The translations under genes were made by a program, and so were the position numbers. The notes beneath the pieces were generated by a model. The model had not been told where the DNA came from. It made no database searches and saw only the letters and a program-made list of their open reading frames with translations. Positions 10,190-60,956 of a stretch of DNA of 64,000 nucleotides are shown here, piece by piece. Source of the stretch: Chrysochromulina tobinii (Eukaryota); contig JWZX01003205.1 of NCBI GenBank assembly GCA_001275005.1, forward strand, positions 1 to 64,000, in the 5' to 3' direction. Numbering within the stretch: the stretch's first letter is position 1; the number at the start of each line of letters is the position of its first letter.

Positions 10190-13100
10190 TCAAAGGTGAA
10201 ACACTGCCGAAGCTCTGGAAGCGGAAGGCGACGCCGTCTGCATCACACGCTCTGCGTGGCCAGCCACTCGGCGCAGGACCCTCAAGCGGATGACGCCATA
10301 CATCCGCTTGAGCCGCTTCGTCGTCTCCATGTGACCGACGGCATTCCATCCACTGACCGAGAGCACCTGATCGCCAACGAACAGCTTGCCGTGCGCGAGG
10401 GCGTCGCTTGCGACCGCATCGAGGAAGGGGTGTCCTTCGCCCGAGAGGGTGACGCCTAGCCGCGCGTTCTTGTCAGGCTTCTCGAGCACCACCTCAAGCA
10501 CGATCCCAGCGAGATCGCGCGAGGGTGCATACGGCGCAACCAGTGCCGTCGCCTCTGGTGCCGTGGCCTCAGGTGATGTCGCCTCCGGTGATGTCGCCTC
10601 TGGTGCCGTCCACTCCGGTTCCGTCCACTCCGGAGGATGCGCCGCCGTCGCCGCGGACGTCGCCGCCGCCGCCGTCGCCGCGGAAGTCGCCGCCGCCGCC
10701 GCCGCCGCGGACGTCGCCGCCGCCGCTGCCCCCCTGGATGCCCCTTTGCCATGCGCGCCCTTGGGCTTCGATGCCGACGGCACGGGGGCCTCCTTGTAGT
10801 CGACAGGGTCACGTGGCGGAGGTCTGCCACGTGGCGTCGCCGCCGGCGGCGCCGGAGCTTGCTGCTTGGGTAACTGTGCCGGCGCGGGCGCGGGGCCGTG
10901 TGTCGGCACCCTTATTTGGGTCGGCACCCTTATTTGGGTCGGCACCACCGCCTCCGGCCCCGGCTCCACTCCAGCTTCGAGAGCCTTCGCACGCGCGAGC
11001 CGATGCCAAGCAAGCACCTGGTGCTCGAGCTGCTGTCCTCGTGCGGAGGCGCTCGTGCACGGCGTGGCGCGCGCCTCAAGTACCTCGCGCATGCCTTCAC
11101 AGAGCTGCGCGAGCGCCTTGGCCGCCAGATGATGCGCCTGCGCGTGATGCACCACCTCCGCTGCCTCCACCTGCCGTCGCCGCTCGTCGAGCCGTCGAGC
11201 GTCAAGAGGCAATCAGCTTGCAATCAGCCTACAATCAGCATGCAGTCAGAGGCTCTCCCACCTGCCGTCGCCGCTCATCGAGCTGCGAGAGGAGGGCCTG
11301 CAGAGTCGGGATCGTCTGATCGGCCGTCGAGAGCAGCTCGCGCGCAGACTCCCGCACGCCCGTCGGATCCGCATAGAGCGCGTCGAGATCCTGCTCGCAG
11401 TGCGTCAGCCGCTGCCGCAGAGCGCCCACCGCGGCCTCATTATGGGCGCGGTTCATCGATAGCTGTTTGGAGAGCTCGGCCTGCTTCTTCTCGTCGCGCA
11501 CCTGTGGGGAAGGACAAGGCGCCGTGGTGAGCACATGCATGCAAGGCCCGCTTCTCATCGTCGCGCACCTCGAAGCTCGCAAGGACGCTCTCTGCCCGTG
11601 AGAGCCGTTGACGCGTCATGTCGAGCTCTTGCTGGCAAGCGAGCAACGCCGCCTCGGCAGCGGCCAGCGCACCCGAGGGCGGCCCACGAGCCGCCGCAGG
11701 CGCCGTGGTGAGCACATGCATGCAGGGCGGCCCACGAGCCGCCGCAGGCGCCGTGGTGAGCACATGCATGCAGGGCGGCCCACGAGCCGCCGCAGGCGCC
11801 GCGACGGCGAGTGCGGGCGCGGGTCTCACCTGTGGGGAAGGGCAGGGCGCCGTGGTGAGCACATGCATGCAGGGCGAGTGCGGGCGCGGGCGCGGGTCTC
11901 ACCACGGTCAGCTGTTGAGGCCCACGAGGGAGGTCGTGCGGAGGCGGCTGTCGTGGCATTTGCTGCGGCTCGCAGCCCAGCCGCCCCTGCCCATTGGGTG
12001 GACTGGGCGCCCAAATTAGTCGCGTGCTCTTGGGCGCCTTGCGCGACGTACCCCATCCCAGGCTCCGCGTCGTCGTGGTCGCGGCATCCGCCCTGCTCGT
12101 TGTAGTAGTCTGCGTCGAAGCCGCCATCTGGGGCAGCGGCACCGTGCACGCCGCCGCCATCGCCAGCGCCGCCGCCGCCGCTGCCAGTACCTACATCGCC
12201 TCCTCGTCCTCCTCGTCCTCCTCCTCCTCCTCCTCCGCCGCCGCCGCCCTTGCAGCCGCCGCCCTTGCAGCCAGTGGATTGCTCAGCTGCTCCGCTCGTG
12301 GGGGCAGCGCTGGCCGCCGCTGACCAGAGGCGCCGCTGCGCCTCTTCCGAGACGGACTGCACCGGCGCGCCCTCCTCCGCCATCCGTGGGCGCGTCGTCG
12401 TGGGCACCGGCGCGCACCCCTCCGCCATCCGTGGGCGCGTCGTCGTGGGCGCGTCGTCGTACGCGCTGTGAGGCTCCTCCTCATCATCGGTGAGTGGAGC
12501 AGCGTCCTCCATCTCGTCCCGCACGTGCAATCTCGACGAGAGCTCGGCTTGGCCACGTGTCGCGAGCATCGCTGGCGTCAGGTTCGCGAGCACTTGCTTG
12601 CTCAGCTTGGCGCCGCCCTTGCCTGTCGCGTGCAGCATGACAACTCCATCTGTAGCCGCGCCGTCCTGAGCGTCGTCCTTGGGCGGTTCCACAGCCACCG
12701 CGTCGTCCTGAGCGTCGCTCCCCGCTCCATCGCTATCCTCATACTCGACACGCTCGAGGCACGCGTCCTCGTGAGCGTGCTCGCCCTCGGCATCGTCGTG
12801 TGCGCCGCGAGCCGTGCGCCGTCGCAGCCCGGGCAGCGGCCCCTCGTCATCACTGCCGTCGGCCGCGCCGTCGTCGTCGTCGTCGCTCTCGAGCGGCTCC
12901 AGCGCTTCTCCCGCGGCGGCACCTGCGAGCGGACCCAGCCACGCCGCAGGCGCGGGCTGCAGCTCGGGGTGTGAATGCATGTGTGTGAATGTGGGGTCCA
13001 GCCACGCCGCAGGCGCGGGCTGCAGCTCGGGGTGTGCCAGCATCGTCTCGGGTTCAGGTTGCGTCTGCAGCACGTCCAGCGCCATCGCCGCCGCTACGTC

Positions 13101-16100
13101 GGCCGCAGCATCCATCGCCTCCGCTGCCGTCGCCCCCGCCTCGGGCGTCGTCTCGGGCGCGCCGCCTCCCCCGGCGAGCGTCTCGAGTGCATCGAGCGCC
13201 TGCCCAAGGAGCGTCATCAGAGATCATCAGCGGTCATCAGCGGTCATCAGCGGTCATCAGAGGTCATCAGAGGTCATCAGAGGTCATCAGCGTACCTGCC
13301 CAAGGAGCGTCACGAGCGCCTCGGGAGAGTAAAACGTCGCCACGAGCTCAGCCGTTGGGTGCTCGAGGAGCATACCGGTGATCTTGGAGGCGAGCGCTTC
13401 GTCACCTAGCTGCGCCGCCACTACTGGGTACAAAGCATTCCCAAGCTGCTGATCACGCATCGCGCTCGGCATCGCGTCGAGCGCCGCCACGTCACCTTCC
13501 GCGCTCGTCCAAGCTTTTGCGCAACAGGCCGCCTCGGAGCGCACGGCCACCGCTGGCGCTGCCTCCACTGCCCCGACTGCCTCCACAGCCTCCACAGCCT
13601 CCACTGCCCCCACTGCCTCCACGGCGGCGGCGGCGGCCGCATCGGCTTCTTGCGCGAGCGCGAGCCGCCACCGAATCAGTTTCTCTTCTTGCGCGCGCTG
13701 CTCCTCGTCGTGTCGACAGCCCTCACGCCGCTGCAGCAGCGCCAGCCACGTCCTCTGGAGCAGATTAGCCGCACGCGCGGCAGCCTCGGCGTCGAGCCGT
13801 TCGGCCTCCACCTGCATGCAATGAGGGAGGCAATCAGATGCAATCAGATGCAATCAGATGCAATCAGATGCAATCAGCCATCCGATCTTTTCGAGCCGTT
13901 CGGCCTGAGCCTTGGCGTTCACCTGCGCAGCGTGCTGCTCCGCCTCGGCCTTCGCGGCTGCCGTCGCGGCTGCCGTCGCGGCTGCCGTCGCGGCTGCCTC
14001 CGCAGCGTGCCGCTCCGCCTCAGCCGCCGCGTGCCGCTTGGCCCTCACAAGCCTCCCTCGACCGGCTGCCTGCAGCAGGCATGCCATACGTTCCTGCTGC
14101 TGCGCGCGAGCGAAGGCGAGCTCATCGGCGAACCGGTCGACATTGAAGCCCTTGCGCGAGAGCTTATCAAGGGGCCACGCGAGCAGCGACTCGAAGACGA
14201 TCTTGTCCGTGTTCTGCACCAGCTGGAGCAGCGCCGTCGCGAGCGCGTCGCCCACCGCCTCGAGCAGCTCGCGGAGCTCTAGCTGCGGATGCGGCACCAC
14301 GTGCACCACGAGCCAATCGCCCTCGGAGAGCGCGCACGCCTTGGCCTCCATCTCGATCGAGGCGAGCTCGCCAAAGCGCAGCGTGGACACGATGCCGGGC
14401 ACCTCGCTCACGACGACGCGCTGCTCACGCAGCGCCTGTTGCATGCCTTCTCGCAGGTTGGGTCGCAGCGGGCATTCGGGCTTGTCCAGGTCGTGCAGCA
14501 GCAGGCACGTGCGCTCCTCGATGCGTCGCAGCACCTGCTGCGTGAGCTTGCTGCTGCTCGGCACACTTCCCGCCACAGGGCGTGCCGAGACGGTCACCGC
14601 TTCCGAAAGCGAGCGCACGCCCAAAAAGGTGTACAACTCTTTCAAATCCGCATCCTCGGGCGCGACCAGCGGAGAAAAGAGCTCAACGTACCGCTGATTG
14701 TCCCCGATGAAGCAGCCCGCGGCGCTTACGGCGCTCCAGCTGCGCGCCGTCGCGCCGCCGCCGCCGCTGCCGCCCTTGCCGCCCTTGCCGCCACCTTCGC
14801 CCTTTGCCAGCTGATGGTAACCAATTAGCTGATGGTAACCAATTAGGCAGGGCGCGCTCGCGAGCGCAACGCGCGTCCTTTCGTCGATGGGCTCGCGCCG
14901 CAGCCCGTTCCAGAGCTCCTTGAGCACGCCGAGGTACGCCGAGATATTGGCCTGCATGCTGTCGATGCCGCGGCTGCCGTTGCGTAGCACGCAGCCGGCG
15001 AGAGCCACCGGCGATGGCGTCGCCGCGACGCCGCAACGGGCCAAAAAGGCGCCGGCCGAGGTCGAAGGGCTCTGGCTGCAGTAGTCGAGCAAGGCGCCGT
15101 ACTTTTTGCGCGCCCCGCTGAAAAAGAGAGCGTGCGGCGGCGCGTGCCCGACTCCTTGCCCGACCCCACTGCGCACTGGCACGACCGGCGCGTCCGAGAG
15201 AAGTCCCCACAGCTCTGTGCTCAGCTCGGCAGAGCGTCGGTGCATGTACTCAAAGGTGCGCTCGGCCGACTTCTCGGTCGGCGGCGCCGTGATGAGCTGG
15301 CGCACAACCGCCTCGATGCACGGACGCAACGGAAGCCGCAGCGCCGCGACGCCTGCGGGCCCGCCGAGTGCGCGCACGTCAGCGACTGCGAAGGCCCCAG
15401 GCCACGGCGACGGCTCCGAAAAAGAGACCGATGGCTTTCCGAGCAACGGCCGCCCGTGGGGCTCGAGTGTGGCCACGGATGCGCCCGAAGATCCGGCATC
15501 AGGCGCGGCGATCGGCAGCAGCGGTACGATCTCGAGGGTGGAGATCGGGTCGTACTCCGCAGCGTAGTGCTCCTCCATGTGGGAGATGAGGAAGGCAAGC
15601 GCGGCCTTTCTCACAGGCGCGTCGGCACCCGCCGCCTTGTCGAGCAGCGTGTCGAGCGGCGGCCGCTCGGCGATGCCCAGCCGCAACAGCATGCGCCGCT
15701 CGACCGCCGTCATCGACGTCCCAGACCACGGTAGGGTGGGCAGGCCCAAAGATCGCAATGCGTCAGTTGGTAGGTAGACGCTGCCGCCGCTGCCGCCGCC
15801 GCCGCCGCCGCCGCCGCTGCTGCTTGCGCGCATGGTCTCGAGCTCGGCCCAATCCTCGGGGCCCAGCATCCCTACTCGCTCGCGTGACTCAAGATAGCCC
15901 ACGAGCTCGCGATAGCCCCATCCGAGCTCTTCCATGCGTGCATGCACCAACACGACCGGTGGGTGTGAGCGCAGGCCGAGGCGTGCGAGCAGTGGGGATG
16001 GCACGCCCTCGAGCCCCGTCGCCACCGGCAGCCCGAGCTTTTCCAGCTGCGCGAGTGCGCTGGACGCCAGGTACGTTTCGGGAGGGCAGAGCATCTTGGT

Positions 16101-18322
16101 AGGCTCCACCGTGCCGCTGCTGACGCCGCCGCCATCGACGGCGCTCCCGCCGCTCGAAACGACGGGCACGCAGCGTCGGCTTCGCAGCGCTTGCACCACC
16201 GCGGCTTGCTGCTCCTCGGGCTGCTGCTCTAGGTGGGCACCCACCACGCGAAGCACAAGCGGCGCACTCTCGGGCGACTCAATGCATGCATGCCCACTAA
16301 TGAAGCCCCACCACATGTCGAAGCGGAGCTTCTGCAATCCGAGCTTCTGCTCGCACTGGCTGATGCTCAGATGGGCGGCCACGTCATGTGGCAGCGTCTC
16401 GGGCGGTAGCGGCAGCTCGGGCGGCAGCAGCGCCATGCCGCCGAGCGGGTGCAGGCTAAAAGTCGCGAGCGCTCGCGACATCCCCTCTCGACCGAGCGTC
16501 ACCTTGACTGACCGTTTGAACAATGCACGGTCGTCGGCGTCGCCAAAGGCCCGTCGGTCGTGCATCTGCGCATACCATACGAGGAGGCGGCCGAGCTGTG
16601 GGGCAGGCAGAACGGTGCCCGCGAGCTGCTCACAGAGCCGGCGCGCATCGAGCGGCCGAATGAGCGGCGGCGCGTGGCGCTCGAGCTGCTCGTAGAAAGC
16701 GAGGCAGTGGCACTCCGCGGCGGTGGGTGGGATCAGTGGCAGCTCTGTGAGGAATTCGAGGGCACCTCGCAGCTCGGCTGGCACGGTGAACACGAGGGAT
16801 GCCGGCTGCGGCCCAAAGGTACTGGGCACCACAAGCCTGTCGCCCTGCGCGAGGAATGCGTCTGAGAGTAGCTTGCTCACTGTTCGGTTGGGTGTTGAGG
16901 GTATAAAGGTATGGCCCCGGAGCAGCGCCGCGAGCCACGGAGTGAGCACAGGCGGCGGCGGCTCCTTCTTCCTCTCCTCCTCGGCCGGCGCCGAAGCGTC
17001 GGCGGGGCCCGTGCTGGCGGCGGCGGCGGCGGCGATGGCGGCGGCGGCGGCGGCGGCAGCGACTGGTGGCTTCTTTTGAAGCACCTTGACCTTGACGGGT
17101 AGCGCGCCGGTGCTACTGCCGCTCAGGCGGAGCAGCTCGTCGGTGAAGTAATGGAGCGCCATGCTGCCGGCCATCGCGAGCAGCGCCGTGTTCCAAAATT
17201 GGCAATTCTTGTCGTTCATATCGAGGGCGGTCCGCTCCATGGTCGGCAAGAACCCGCCGCACAGATGAAATCCACACCTGTCGACTGGTCCGTCTGTCCG
17301 ATTCCGATATAGATGCGGCCGTCCTCGCGCAGCGCGTGCATCGCGGCGAGCAGTGCGGCGCTGTGCGGCGACGCCGTTCCCGGCGCGTCCGCACTCGACG
17401 CTGCTGGGGCACCGCCACTCGGCACGGGGTAGAGGAGCCGCAGCGTGGAGCGATCGGGCAGGCCCTTGCCGAGAAGCCGACACAAGCCCGCGGTGACGTC
17501 GCCGAGCTTGCCGCGGTCCGTCTTGCGCACGTCCAGCTCGCCCTTGAGCTGCACGAGCTCCGTGATCGCGAGCACACGACTGAGGCTCGTGGCCGACACG
17601 GAGAGCTTTGCAACCTCGAGCGATCTCCCGCCCATGGAGAAGAGCGGACGGATCACGGCGCCGTCACGCGTCTCGGCTGGCGCGGGGCTCTCGTACGGCA
17701 CCGTACGCAGCGGTGTCAGCGCCCGGCGGAAAATGAGCGGCGCAGGCTCGTCAGTGCGCACCAGCTCGATCGTGGCGAGCGTTCGCGCGAAGAGGAGCGT
17801 CGAGCATAGGAACGAGCAAAGTTTCCCAAACTCGTCGGGTGACGCCCAGTGGGTGGCGTCCGCGCCAGCGAGCAGCGGGCACACGACGGTGGCGCCGCTC
17901 ACCAGCGTCGTCAATGCCCGCTCGTAGATGCAGTAGGCCTTGTCCTCCTTGGCAAAACGCATGGCCTTGCCGCCCGATTGGATCTCCGGCTGGTCCGAGG
18001 CCGAGAAGACTGAGTAGAAGCCGACACCGAATAGACCGACGGATGAGGAGTCCGTGTTGCCCTTGGCGATCATGGCCACGCGCTCCCAATCGGCCTCACC
18101 GAATTCGCGACCAGAGTTGGACACCTCGAGCTTGGCCACGCTGCCGTCCGCAGCCACGTGCAGGGTGATCCTGCTGTGGGTCGCCTCGGCGTCGTCGCTA
18201 TTCTGCAGCAGCTCACGCAGCACGAAGAAGGAGGCACTGTACCGTGACAGGATTTTGGACATGAGTGCCTCGTAGTCCACGCCGAGAAGCCGGCGCGTCT
18301 CGCCACCATGACCGCCCTCCAT
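10190..18322 (-). CDS. Multi-exon giant protein: sacsin/HSP90-like ATPase (DUF3684-type N-terminus), helical region, MLLE/PABC domain, coiled coil, C-terminal PDZ; one frameshift at about 17277
   Basis: ILSRYSASFFVLRELLQNSDDA..NSGREF..DWERV..IAKGN..VGLFGVGFYSVF (GHKL/sacsin motifs). GRIYIG..FLPTMERTALD..WN. MLLE: QQLGNALYPVV..ASKITGMLLE. PDZ: RLGVTL..GKLFVGDQVLSVSG. Predicted frame-consistent introns: 13812-13922, 13200-13295, 12003-12051, 11830-11902, 11502-11568, 11171-11261. That all exons form a single transcript is inferred. Confidence 0.7.
11502..11902 (-). repeat. Four copies of the cassette TGCATGCATGTGCTCACCACGGC; two are extended by a pyrimidine tract plus CAG and form intron 3' ends
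   Basis: Plus-strand gccgtggtgagcacatgcatgca at 11521, 11702, 11750 and 11849. Confidence 0.9.
13200..13295 (-). other. Predicted GT-AG intron with (CTGATGACCN)n decamer core and duplicated exon end
   Basis: CAG|GTACGC...TGACGCTCCTTGGGCAG|GCG. Removing it rejoins the two halves of the MLLE domain in frame. Confidence 0.85.
13812..13922 (-). other. Predicted GT-AG intron with (CATCTGATTG)n decamer core
   Basis: CAG|GTGAAC...TGCATGCAG|GTGGAG. Phase 0; removes an in-frame stop between the two ORFs. Confidence 0.75.
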
Positions 18323-18645
18323 GATAGCGTCACCGAGAAGGACGCGACGTTCTCCACTAACTTGGCGCCGTCTCGGGCATTTCGTAATATTTAATCTGTT
18401 TTCCACTCACGGGAGACGCTCATACACATCCTCACAAGACACGCACACACTCAAACGTCCAGGTTTTGAGCGATGGTTTTGAGATAGGAGCAGGGGGGAT
18501 GCAGCGGTGCACCAAAGAGATGGCGAGCGCCTTCTGTGCCTCGTTTCGTATTAAGCGAGCTCACGAAACCACTCGTGCACCTCAAGGTGCTAAAGTTAGG
18601 ACTGAACTGAACTTAACTGATGAGGACTGTGAAGCACGATCAAGG

Positions 18646-57251: not shown

Positions 57252-58190
57252 CTATCTCCGCTTCGCAGAGGACGTCGTCGAGCGCAGCGTGTCGAGCAGA
57301 TCGGGTCGATGCGCGCACACCAGATTGGACCAGCGGTGGGAGATGCGCGTCTGGAACTCGTCGACCCAGCAGCCGCCCGAGGCTTGTGCGAGCGCGCCGC
57401 GGTTCCCCTGCCAGAAGCACGTATACCCAATCCCGTCGAGCCAGCGCAGCGTGTCCGCGAGCCCTGTGGCGCCGAGGTGCTGTTTCCATGCACGCATGTA
57501 CTCGAACTCGAAGACGTCCACTGCCTTGCGCTCGAGTGCGCCGCGCATGCCGCGTAGCACAAAGCCATCCCATCCCTCGGTGTCGACGGAGACGAACGAC
57601 AGGCGCTCGATACGGCGCGCTGCCATGAAGGCATCCACGGTCGTCACGTTACGCACCAGCCCGTTCCGAACAGCGCGCCGTGAGGCGGCCACCGACTCGT
57701 ACCCGGGCGCCCCAGAGTCACGGGTGAAGACCGTGCCGGTCACATTTGAGACTGCTTCGCCGTGCACTTCGACGGGAGCGTCGGTGAGCGCTACCAGCTG
57801 TCGCAGCAGCCGCTCATTAGATGGCTGCAGCTCGAAGGCGTGCATCCGCAGCCGTGCGCCAGCGTCTGCACGCTGTTGAATGCGCGCGCGGTGGCAGATG
57901 AGGCACACGCCGCAACACTGCAGCGCACACGGCGGTGAGGCGCTATGCATCATGAGCTGGTGCCACTTCTTGTGACTGATGTCAGCGGCCGTGTACCGCT
58001 GCATCCACTCAGCGAGGTTGTAGCCCTTATTTGCTCCGATGTTGAGCATCACAACATCGCCCGAGCCCACCACGAGCAGTGGTGCCACGCGGTCATGCCA
58101 GGTGTCACTCGGGCAATTTGAATGACGCCCGATGTCGACGCCTTCAATGTGGCACGGCGTGGCGCGCGTCGGCGTTGGAGAAGCCGCCAT
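57252..58190 (-). CDS. FkbM-family methyltransferase
   Basis: MLNIGANKGY, HAFE, VTTVDAF, VSVDTEGWD..VLRG, FEFEY. Confidence 0.85.
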   Translation of the reverse strand: MAASPTPTRATPCHIEGVDIGRHSNCPSDTWHDRVAPLLVVGSGDVVMLNIGANKGYNLAEWMQRYTAADISHKKWHQLMMHSASPPCALQCCGVCLICHRARIQQRADAGARLRMHAFELQPSNERLLRQLVALTDAPVEVHGEAVSNVTGTVFTRDSGAPGYESVAASRRAVRNGLVRNVTTVDAFMAARRIERLSFVSVDTEGWDGFVLRGMRGALERKAVDVFEFEYMRAWKQHLGATGLADTLRWLDGIGYTCFWQGNRGALAQASGGCWVDEFQTRISHRWSNLVCAHRPDLLDTLRSTTSSAKRR

Positions 58191-58322
58191 CGAGACCGAT
58201 CTTTCACGACACTTCACGCAGCTGCTGTGTTCCAAACGAGGTTACTTTTGTCCGAAAGGAGGGTCGGTCGGGAGCACGACCTTTTCGCATTCAATTTACC
58301 TTCACACTTGAGGGACCAAATC

Positions 58323-59742
58323 ATGGCGTCGCCTGTTTACAGCGGCAGCAACAGCGCGGCACGGGCCATCCTGCAGATCGATATCGACTGCTTTTACGCT
58401 CAAGTGGAGATGCTGCGCGGTCGTGTGGATCCGGACCGGCCGTTCGCTGTGACGCAAAAGTTCCTCGTGGTTACCGCCAACTATGCAGCCCGTGCGGCTG
58501 GTGTGGGCAAGCTGATGCCCATCGACCGCGCTAAGGCCAAGTGCCCAGAGCTGCTACTCGCCTCCGGAGAGGATCTGACGCCATATCGCGAAGCCTCGGC
58601 CGCGATCTTCACCGCGCTCACCCCGTTCGGACCCGTTCAGAAGCTCGGGCTTGATGAGATGTTTGTCGACGTGACGGCTGCAGCGCGCGAGCTGCTGCGT
58701 GCGGATGGTGCGATCCAATGGTCCGAGACCACGAGAATACATGCCGCTCGGCACGGCACCACATCTGCCGAGGCGCAAGCTCGCACCGGCACGGATTACC
58801 GTCCACAGGACCTACGTGCTTCGGATCAGATTGGCGTTGCAGCGGCTCTGGAGGCGGCGGCGGCCGAGGACGACGAGCAGGCACGGCTTCTGCGCGCCGC
58901 GAGTCACGTGGCGGTGCGCTGCAAGGCGGCAATCCGCGCGCAGAGCGGCCTGACCGCCTCTGTCGGCGTCGCCTCCTCGAAACTCCTCGCTAAGCTCTGC
59001 TGTGGATTGCACAAGCCGGATGGACTCACCGCTCTCCCACAGTCGGAAGCGCGTGCCTTTCTGGCGCCGCTCGACGTGCGCGTCCTGCCAGGCGTGGGCA
59101 GCGCCGCCACTGGCATGCTCCACTCTCTCGGCCTCACCACCGTCGGCGATCTCGGCGCGATCTCGACCGGCGCGCTGCACCGAGCGCTGAGCGAGCTTCC
59201 CGCCGCGCTGCTCAAGACGACGCGTCTGAGCGCCGCGCGATTGACGAGCCTCGCGGCGGGCCTCGACGTGGAGCCGGTCGTGCCGAGCGGCCCGCCCAAG
59301 AGCCTCAGCGTCGAGGACTCCTTCCGAGGAGCGAGCAGTTTCGAAGCCCTCGAGAAAGTGGTCGCCGTCCTCGTACCGGACTTGGTCGAGAGGCTTGCGC
59401 ACGACCGCGCGAGTCACGCACGAAGGGCGTGCACGCTCCTTATCCGCTGGCGCCACAGCGGCTCGCGCACGATGAATCACCCTCATGGCGCCGCGTCAGG
59501 TCACTCGATGTCGCGTAGCACGCCCATGCCGCATCTGGTATGCCGAGAGGGCTCAGGACAGCGCCTGGCTGACGAGCGCGCGCTTGCTGAGGTGGCGCTG
59601 GCCGTGTTGCGTGAGCAGCTGGCCCCAGCGCCATTCACACTCACGCTCCTGGGATTGGGCGCGACCAACTTTGAGCCGGCGCCGCGCCAGAGAGGTGGCG
59701 ACGCCGGCCAGGCCAAGGGCAACAGCGGCAGCAGCGGCAGCA

Positions 59743-59801
<59 letters not shown>

Positions 59802-60956
59802 TTGCTCGTCGCGCCGTCGCCATTGCCAATGGGCATGGCGACCGCCGCTGCTGCCCGCGCCGCTGCCGAGCTGCAGCGCAGCTGGCGCACCGACTATGCG
59901 GTGGCCGACGAGGCGAGATTGGGTCGAGATTGGGTCGTGTGCAGTAAAGCGGCTGAGCGCCGAAAACGCGAGCTCGGGATGGGGATGGTCGAGATCGGGT
60001 CGAGATTGGATCGAGATTGGGTCGAGCTCGGGGGCGGCAGCACGATAGGCGGCGATGCGAGCGGCAGCGGCGCGGGAAGGAGCGGCGCGACCGTTCGCGG
60101 AGCGAGTGGCAGCATCAGCGCCCGGTACAGCTCCCGCTTCCCGGAGGATGCCGAGTCAGTTGCCTGGGATGGCGGCGAGCCGGAGCTCGAGCTGGACTGT
60201 TACGGCAATGACGGCAACGAGGTGGAGACCACCGGCTGGTTCGAGAGTGACGAGCGCTGTCTCGAGCACTGTGTGGCGTCTGCGGCCGAGGACGACGAGC
60301 CGCGGGGCGGGCGCACCGGCACGCTCGTCGCACCTCTGGCGACGGCGACGAGCACCAGTGTGCAGCAGCCCTTGTCCGCGTACCTACGATCGCCATCCAA
60401 AGGTGTGGTGGCTGGTGGTGTGGTGGCTGGTGGTGTGGTGGCTGGTGGTGTGGTGGCTGGTGGTGTGGTGGCCTTAGGCAGCAAAGGTGCGGTGGCTATG
60501 GGCACGGTTGCCTCAGCCAGCGGCTCCAGCAGTGTGGGGGCAAGAGCTGCGCCGGGTCAGTCTCCTCCAGCCCCCGCCGTGCAAGCTCGCGAAGCAGCGG
60601 TGTCGGAGGCGCCTACTTGCCCTGTTTGCGGCCAAGTGCTTCGGCTGGACAATGCGCAAGTGAACTCTCACATCGACGAGTGTTTGAACAGCTCGCTGCT
60701 GCCGGCGGCGCCGAGCTCGTCGGCAGGCCTCGCGCCGTCCGGCTCGGCGAAGAAGCGATCTGGAATCTCCAGATCCAATCTCCAGATTCACATCTCGGCG
60801 AAGAAGCGAGCCCTCGTGCTGGAGAAGCCGCGAGAAGGGGGCAAGCGCAGGACTCCAACTGCTGCACGAGGCGGGCGTCAGCGCGACGACGGAGCGATAC
60901 AGTCGACGCTCGAGAGTTCTTGGGGCTGCCTTGGTGTCGGGTTGGTGCGTGAATAG
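58323..60956 (+). CDS. POLI: Y-family DNA polymerase iota-like with UBZ4-type zinc finger and C-terminal PIP-like motif
   Basis: IDIDCFYAQVE, AVTQKFLVVTANY.AR..GV.KLM, GEDLTPYREAS, KLGLDEMFVDVT, KLLAKL..GLHKP. CPVCG..NSHIDECL. QSTLESSW. Confidence 0.9.

Follow-up and report, generated by a model that had tools for sequence, protein, structure and literature searches.

Two short introns in a gene of Chrysochromulina tobinii end in one shared module and open with a copy of the exon that follows them, and the same arrangement recurs at many sites in metagenome contigs. From their sequences, the members of this family are very probably real, young and spliced introns. The module appears to be the 3' half of a single intron of about 75 nt, whose 5' half makes a mirror class of introns; this source was reconstructed from overlapping pieces. 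The origin that we favour, with a probability of roughly 0.55, is templated, microhomology-primed repair of staggered breaks, in which the template would often be an intron of the same gene and splicing would act as a filter. The window mentioned throughout is the whole stretch of 64,000 nt that was analysed (contig JWZX01003205.1, positions 1 to 64,000).

Family introns in the window gene

A pattern for the 42-nt module matched the window exactly twice, both times on the minus strand (11502-11543 and 11830-11871), and none of 100 shuffled sequences gave two matches. These are the very coordinates at which the initial annotation had placed a piece shared by the ends of two introns. Its claim that both introns open with a copy of the following exon was also borne out, with about 24 nt in each: in intron 11502-11568 the first 24 nt are such a copy (21 of 24 identical), and intron 11830-11902 has a 24-nt exon copy at its start plus a 6-nt slippage repeat. 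The proposal that both splices are phase 0 and bridge the frames of different ORFs stands for intron 11502-11568, where the flanking frames both look coding under a codon model trained on the window gene, and is uncertain for intron 11830-11902. The latter is phase 0 solely against the ORF at 11555-12190, just upstream of which lies a stop. If the 465-codon ORF at 11826-13223, the continuation of the gene, is taken instead, it is phase 1 and runs into stops. A GC donor at 11912 was the sole one of four donors tried that restored a single open frame for this intron. Used as a protein query, the exon upstream of 11568 found no match.

The earlier reading overlooked two acceptor-less copies of the module core and three related introns of the same gene (Table 1). 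The core copies lie in the 48-nt tandem region between the two A-type introns, each with a 29-nt duplication, and the 48-nt unit shows microhomology to the adjoining intron at both joins. The window gene carries both A-type introns, which open with a copy of the downstream exon, and B-type or mirror introns, which have a copy of the upstream exon at their end. All six family pieces counted in the window fall within 11100-13950, in one gene, and none was found in the other 60.1 kb, which holds about 20 ordinary genes.

The host-gene span may represent one gene or two. At 12190-12300 (minus strand) the codon scores change frame across a low-complexity stretch and an acidic run ends in a stop; there may be a hidden intron, a frameshift or the end of the gene at this place. 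Elsewhere in the window, a Y-family DNA polymerase gene (IMS) was noted at 58122-60953 on the plus strand, and no link to the introns was seen.

Table 1. Family introns, related repeats and host gene in the window
Feature	Position	Strand	Size	Composition and remarks
A-type intron, phase 0	11502-11568	-	67 nt	Donor GT and exon copy 11568-11545, module 11543-11502; putatively spliced
A-type intron	11830-11902	-	73 nt	Exon copy 11902-11872, module 11871-11830; donor either GT at 11902 or GC at 11912; putative splicing and frame
In-frame tandem unit	11676-11801	-	2.6 copies of 48 nt	29-nt target duplication and acceptor-less piece of the module; presumed local copying
B-type (mirror) intron	11171-11261	-	91 nt	Short repeat block; acceptor from copy of about 22 nt of the upstream exon end; polymorphic
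B-type intron	13200-13295	-	96 nt	Donor and 10-nt repeats; acceptor from 17-nt copy of the upstream exon end
Probable family intron	13812-13922	-	111 nt	16-nt copy of the downstream exon and 10-nt repeats, with the first bases of the module at its end; putative, candidate donor position
Host gene	10190-18406	-		Sacsin/HATPase, DUF3684, MLLE and weak PDZ match (Pfam); low-complexity, coiled-coil-like region; one gene or two

The module in metagenome contigs

The module is not confined to the window locus: it matches at least 142 stretches of metagenome contigs, in unrelated genes. Copies were chosen by an exact 16-nt core; the matches listed comprise 155 distinct copies, of which nine with short flanks were left out and 146 analysed. 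Repeat records of one site and the probable chance matches L060, L062 and L077 were excluded from the divergence, hybrid, join, neighbour and strand counts. An anchored duplication of the start of the downstream exon was found in 122 of the 146 copies listed, against 7 of 600 mismatched pairs, and is lacking in the other 24. Among the matches listed, the 122 duplications are 9 to 58 nt long (median 29) and start with GT in 99 cases and with GC in 13. The introns that they imply have a median length of 78 nt, 119 of the 122 lying between 64 and 99 nt, and multiples of three are not in excess (46/37/39 by length modulo three); AG precedes the donor in 44 of these 122 listed copies. The length of the rest of the intron is negatively correlated with that of the duplication (rho -0.52), as would follow from a filter on intron length.

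The initial annotation had described a shared branch and acceptor piece combined with a long duplication whose GT becomes the donor, without terminal inverted repeats. That architecture fits the 122 of the 146 copies listed, and inspection of the module ends revealed no such repeats. Its insertion of a module of about 42 nt has to be reworded: a shared piece does stand at the intron end, but it is a variable-length part of a longer intron with a mirror class, not a fixed cassette. The part common to family introns is the 3' 40 to 55 nt or so alone, and the base profile is flat more than about 8 nt upstream of the core. The core itself is well conserved and holds the CTCAC branch-like site. The base just before the branch-like hexamer is hypervariable (A 63, T 20, C 12 and G 3%), lies between columns that are 90-98% conserved, and varies even in the youngest copies. 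An Rfam search over the module gave nothing relevant and no family at E values up to 10; a suspected resemblance to part of U1 snRNA is accordingly unsupported. The module folds no better than its shuffles, with no stable structure.

Concerning the origin of the contigs, the UBA1 gene of one metagenome locus clusters with KOO22127.1 of C. tobinii and with a C. parva protein. Through this one gene the contigs can be tied to C. tobinii/parva, and they are likely from Chrysochromulina. Prokaryote genomes and viral contigs yielded two chance-like acceptor-less matches (L143 and L144) and one copy at a contig end (L001/L145). The last, a contig of a viral collection that ends in a module copy, is likely host contamination or a chimera, and viral carriage is unsupported. 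Head-to-tail tandem repeats of a whole A-type intron together with its exon copy were observed in P0046, L020, L049, L059 and L079, and likely arose by unequal exchange between the long duplications.

Evidence for splicing

The introns are likely spliced, to judge from the restoration of reading frames and from codon-biased divergence. When the best frame was chosen independently on each side, the two frames were those expected from removal of the intron in 81 of 112 copies and in 60 of the 68 confident ones. The latter include 45 copies with a length not divisible by three, of which 39 fit removal and 1 fits reading through. When 62 of 90 candidate junctions were submitted to Pfam, the same family was found on either side in 11. 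JmjC, aldo-keto reductase and ferrochelatase matches rejoin within about two profile positions across inserts of 79-83 nt, and RmlD, AMPK-CBM and UBA matches are collinear but looser. Copy and exon differ at 5.2% of positions on average, or 4.6, 3.6 and 9.5% by codon position, and the differences are synonymous in 46 of 100 cases against the 24% expected, as if the downstream copy were a constrained exon. A purge of AG dinucleotides from the intronic copy was looked for and failed to appear (96 against 95). Among acceptor-less copies, a class that mixes intronic, B-type and misclassified copies, 4 of 27 lengths are multiples of three.

Young and polymorphic alleles

Presence/absence polymorphism at matching sites, which the initial annotation had proposed to look for, does occur: at one A-type site of UBA1, to which the filled/empty evidence belongs, 6 empty and 17 filled genomic alleles coexist. 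The six proteins in question show no break at the site but continue into the following intron, which indicates that they come from empty genomic alleles. One UBA1 product is contiguous at all three junctions checked, and a C. rotalis transcript is likewise contiguous across the site. With 97-98% identity, the empty alleles may belong to a sister lineage. The filled alleles hold several versions of the insertion, one with a pristine duplication, and many have frame-shifting versions. Far from being ancient and shared with distant taxa, the intron positions are young and polymorphic, and 23 of 69 duplications are perfect.

In the window gene, intron 11502-11568 is present in 9 of the 15 near-identical alleles listed and absent from none of those listed that reach the site. 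Nine of the 15 listed begin inside its module, with the intron unspliced there, and lack the 91-nt intron. In L069 (UBA1, an essential gene; reverse complement 120-350, 800-1065, 2090-2430 and 2560-2790) several repeat-rich B-type introns were seen besides the A-type one, and several alleles in which the A-type intron is read through lack the intron near 800-1065.

The mirror class

Of the 40 candidates with a donor followed by repeats, a set that includes some false starts within repeat blocks, 19 close with 10-42 nt copied from the end of the upstream exon, against 5 of 600 controls. Three of these 19 B-type introns continue into the module core. In L142, L056, L113 and L036 a donor is followed by a short repeat-like stretch and then by the core, and in some of them a copy of the upstream exon comes last. 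In 13 of the 115 A-type copies a B-type half occupies precisely the same junction; there the upstream exon is followed by the 5' half, then by a copy of the junction as spliced, the 3' half and the downstream exon. Repeat blocks are common near copies anyway, occurring in 17% of random windows. Inspection of the 24 copies free of a downstream duplication and of the 40 donor-plus-repeat candidates revealed no clean full-length copy free of duplication, L036 and L004 being the closest.

Joins, strand and clustering

Exon copy and shared sequence are joined directly in 26 of 97 cases, with an overlap of at least 3 nt in 15 of the 26 against 6% in simulations; the other 71 joins have filler of unexplained origin. 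A filler of about 25 nt upstream of the core is common to the unrelated contigs L002 (near 1475) and L009, and suggests that filler may be inherited from a template intron. At the other join, the final G of the module, or a longer match, precedes the donor in 66 of 90 cases, against 219 of 762 background GT sites. Core mismatch rises with divergence of the duplication (1.1, 3.2 and 5.2% versus 1.3, 5.6 and 11.8%), and this decay in step with the duplication indicates that the core is not strongly preserved after insertion. The pyrimidine tract is diverse even among the youngest copies, and in 14 copies with a perfect duplication both the repeat blocks and the pyrimidine tracts are already diverse in a slippage-like manner.

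The strand counts, which cover gene-proximal DNA only and to which selection may contribute, are strongly uneven: 40 acceptor-less cores are sense and 2 antisense (one site seen twice), and repeat blocks are sense in 149 cases versus 1. Family pieces occur at 1.13 per kb in the flanks of known copies, versus 0 in the 60.1 kb of the window outside the host gene. Of 121 pairs of neighbours less than 1.5 kb apart, 15 pairs, from 12 of 32 contigs, have at least two variant features in common; for pairs of the same record sets the figure is 26 of 3543, and none of 300 permutations reached the observed neighbour similarity; the remaining 106 pairs are not close matches, and an earlier, cruder overall test on undeduplicated neighbours was borderline (p = 0.056). 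Iterated partial copies were found in the window and in L009, L056, L066, L086 and L130.

Proposed mechanism and alternatives

The templated repair of breaks is suggested by microhomology at both joins, by the near-exclusive sense orientation of the copies, by their concentration in single genes and by the variants that neighbours have in common. Two nicks 10 to 60 nt apart would leave both ends carrying the same stretch. One end would prime at a G|GT or AG|GT junction of a family intron and, slipping in the repeat block or the pyrimidine tract, copy a part of that intron; the extended end would rejoin the other end at 2-9 nt of microhomology. Selection would then retain those products in which the duplication gives the missing splice site and the intron measures about 65-95 nt. 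If the 3' half were copied, the duplication would supply the donor (A type); if the 5' half, the acceptor (B type). The template could be DNA or the pre-mRNA of the gene itself, and the strand bias favours one linked to transcription. Several findings stand against this proposal, among them the 106 of 121 neighbour pairs that are not close matches, the borderline result of the cruder neighbour test, the filler at 71 of 97 joins and the 24 of 146 copies that lack an anchored duplication. Cores of young copies are near the consensus (1.1% mismatch versus 5.2% in old ones), which a conserved master would explain better than random copying from decayed copies. In addition, inserts of 40-55 nt exceed the 1-25 nt of polymerase theta, and antisense copies are nearly absent. 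We advance more tentatively, at somewhat less than even odds, the wider idea of a self-spreading system free of transposase, in which a family intron would template break repair within its own gene and either of its halves would be pasted beside a long exon duplication; the template of such a system would probably be pre-mRNA.

The main rival, which we hold to be unlikely, is a non-autonomous retroelement of about 75 nt, mobilized by a LINE-type RT (TPRT) with long variable duplications, whose truncation at either end, together with selection, would give the two classes. Variable-length duplication and one truncated end with microhomology are hallmarks of TPRT, and the family has long duplications of variable length, one fixed end and one variable end with microhomology. 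The consensus core of young copies and the slippage-like diversity of the perfect-duplication copies also speak for such an element, and the hypervariable base within the conserved core could reflect misreading by the RT. However, antisense copies are nearly absent, and the clustering in single genes and the variants shared by neighbours are left unexplained. Nor did the module show an Rfam match at E up to 10, a derivation from tRNA, 5S or 7SL RNA or a stable fold, and no partner element was found within the window.

Less probable still is a two-step route in which a full-length intron comes first, by reverse splicing into DNA or an R-loop or by introner insertion, and is then half replaced from an intron-less template such as spliced mRNA, the duplications being scars of aborted homing or loss. 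The 13 of 115 A-type copies with both halves at one junction are what it would produce, and the strict sense strand, the exact joins at splice sites and the several filled versions at one UBA1 site agree with it. The full-length, duplication-free intermediates are nevertheless absent among the 24 and 40 copies inspected, the frequency of repeat blocks in random windows weakens the case of the hybrids, and C. tobin is reported to be haploid (PMC4580454, as far as that source was covered), which would leave few allelic templates.

It is very improbable that plain tandem duplication of exon sequence made the introns and that the module is an unusually long conserved splice signal gained later, introns never having been copied from one another. 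That tandem duplication can give rise to introns is documented (covered part of PMC3443670), and the core is well conserved around its CTCAC branch-like site, but copies with a perfect duplication already hold the complete core while empty alleles have none of it, the core decays in step with the duplication, and AG precedes the donor in just 44 of the 122 listed. The young complete copies largely refute this explanation. Assembly artefacts or unspliced insertions in dead genes, to which the whole-intron tandem copies at L020, L049, L059 and L079 and the ambiguous frame upstream of 11902 might point, are just as improbable, given that the same sites recur with slight differences in independent records, that divergence is codon-biased and that many UBA1 alleles have frame-shifting versions.

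Implications

The origin of new spliceosomal introns has long been an open question, with transposons as the usual explanation for mass gains. The data presented here are more in keeping with local templated copying than with a free transposon; if the copying of half introns holds, introns would be made without any transposon enzyme. One intron of a gene would then give rise to others there, as an ongoing and polymorphic process, and the products would be invisible to introner screens based on similarity at both ends, which implies that present screens miss one class of intron gain. With its young, perfectly duplicated copies and with filled and empty alleles side by side, the family opens the mechanism to direct tests in a cultured alga. 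In such genomes the long exon copies are also a possible source of confusion for read mapping and gene models.

Comparison with known systems

As in the introners of Gozashti et al. 2022, many similar introns stand at unrelated sites, one splice site being carried and the other taken from a target duplication, and at the one UBA1 site the gain is recent, with presence and absence among close relatives; the similarity does not, however, reach near both intron ends, which is the criterion given in the covered part of PMC9860276. C. tobinii was scored with 0 introner families in a screen of 8,716 genomes (PMC12130899, in the part covered). It appears in the assembly list of the 2022 screen and in no other sheet of the covered part of the supplement (PMC9860276), and the methods of that screen, as far as covered, suggest that the zero score is plausibly due to the required similarity near both ends. 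A lineage so scored appears to be gaining introns in numbers. We found no published description of this architecture in a search that most subscription papers and parts of key supplements lie outside.

Several introners come close in one respect or another, as far as the parts of the sources covered describe them. In introners of Symbiodinium and in classes 4/5 and 6/8/10 of Polarella glacialis the acceptor is carried and the donor is the 5' end of the duplication, seamlessly and at unrelated sites (bioRxiv 10.1101/2020.10.14.339549; PMC9860276), but a whole element is inserted with a fixed duplication of 4 or 8 nt, against a partial insert here with 9-58 nt, up to half of the intron. Introner family 5 of a Chrysochromulina sp. 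(Tara MAG, PMC9860276) is of the same genus, lacks terminal inverted repeats and, like the B class, carries the donor and co-opts the acceptor; its duplication is 4 bp, the comparison is by description, and the covered part of the supplement holds no match to the module. The nearest listed architecture is fam24 of another haptophyte, Emiliania huxleyi (PMC12130899), which measures about 70 nt, co-opts the 5' splice site and carries the 3' one, and has 10-bp terminal direct repeats; it has five copies, two of them in paralogues, with an automated duplication call of 2 nt, and was compared by description. MITE-type DNA-transposon introners differ in their fixed 3-9-bp duplications (9-58 here) and terminal inverted repeats. 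SINE/non-LTR insertions made by TPRT share the variable-length duplication and the one truncated end with microhomology, but unlike them the family is almost wholly in sense orientation in the gene-proximal DNA covered, to which selection may contribute, and shows no tRNA, 5S or 7SL RNA origin in Rfam. Fungal stwintrons are without such duplications in the covered part of PMC8469720.

Concerning repair, tandem duplication and double-strand-break repair are reviewed as separate routes of intron gain in the covered part of PMC3443670; there too an exon duplication gives a splice site and direct repeats flank the intron, but the gains are described as one-off events, whereas here, at far more than 100 sites, the branch region as well as the other splice site comes from one shared sequence. 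Introns from tandem genomic duplication take both sites from a duplicated AGGT, and here the acceptor comes from the module. Staggered breaks that give tandem duplications (PMC8355091) and iterated templated insertions (PMC7407515) are documented in other organisms, in the parts of these papers covered, and TMEJ/SD-MMEJ resembles the present case in its two-join microhomology, nearby templates, iterated synthesis and duplication of overhangs. According to the covered part of PMC7407515, polymerase theta inserts 1-25 nt and SD-MMEJ gives inverted as well as direct repeats, in contrast to the family, known here from its sequences, with inserts of about 40-55 nt, one recurrent template and almost no inverted copies. 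The proposed route would join three mechanisms that have been put forward separately, namely tandem duplication, break repair and intron transposition.
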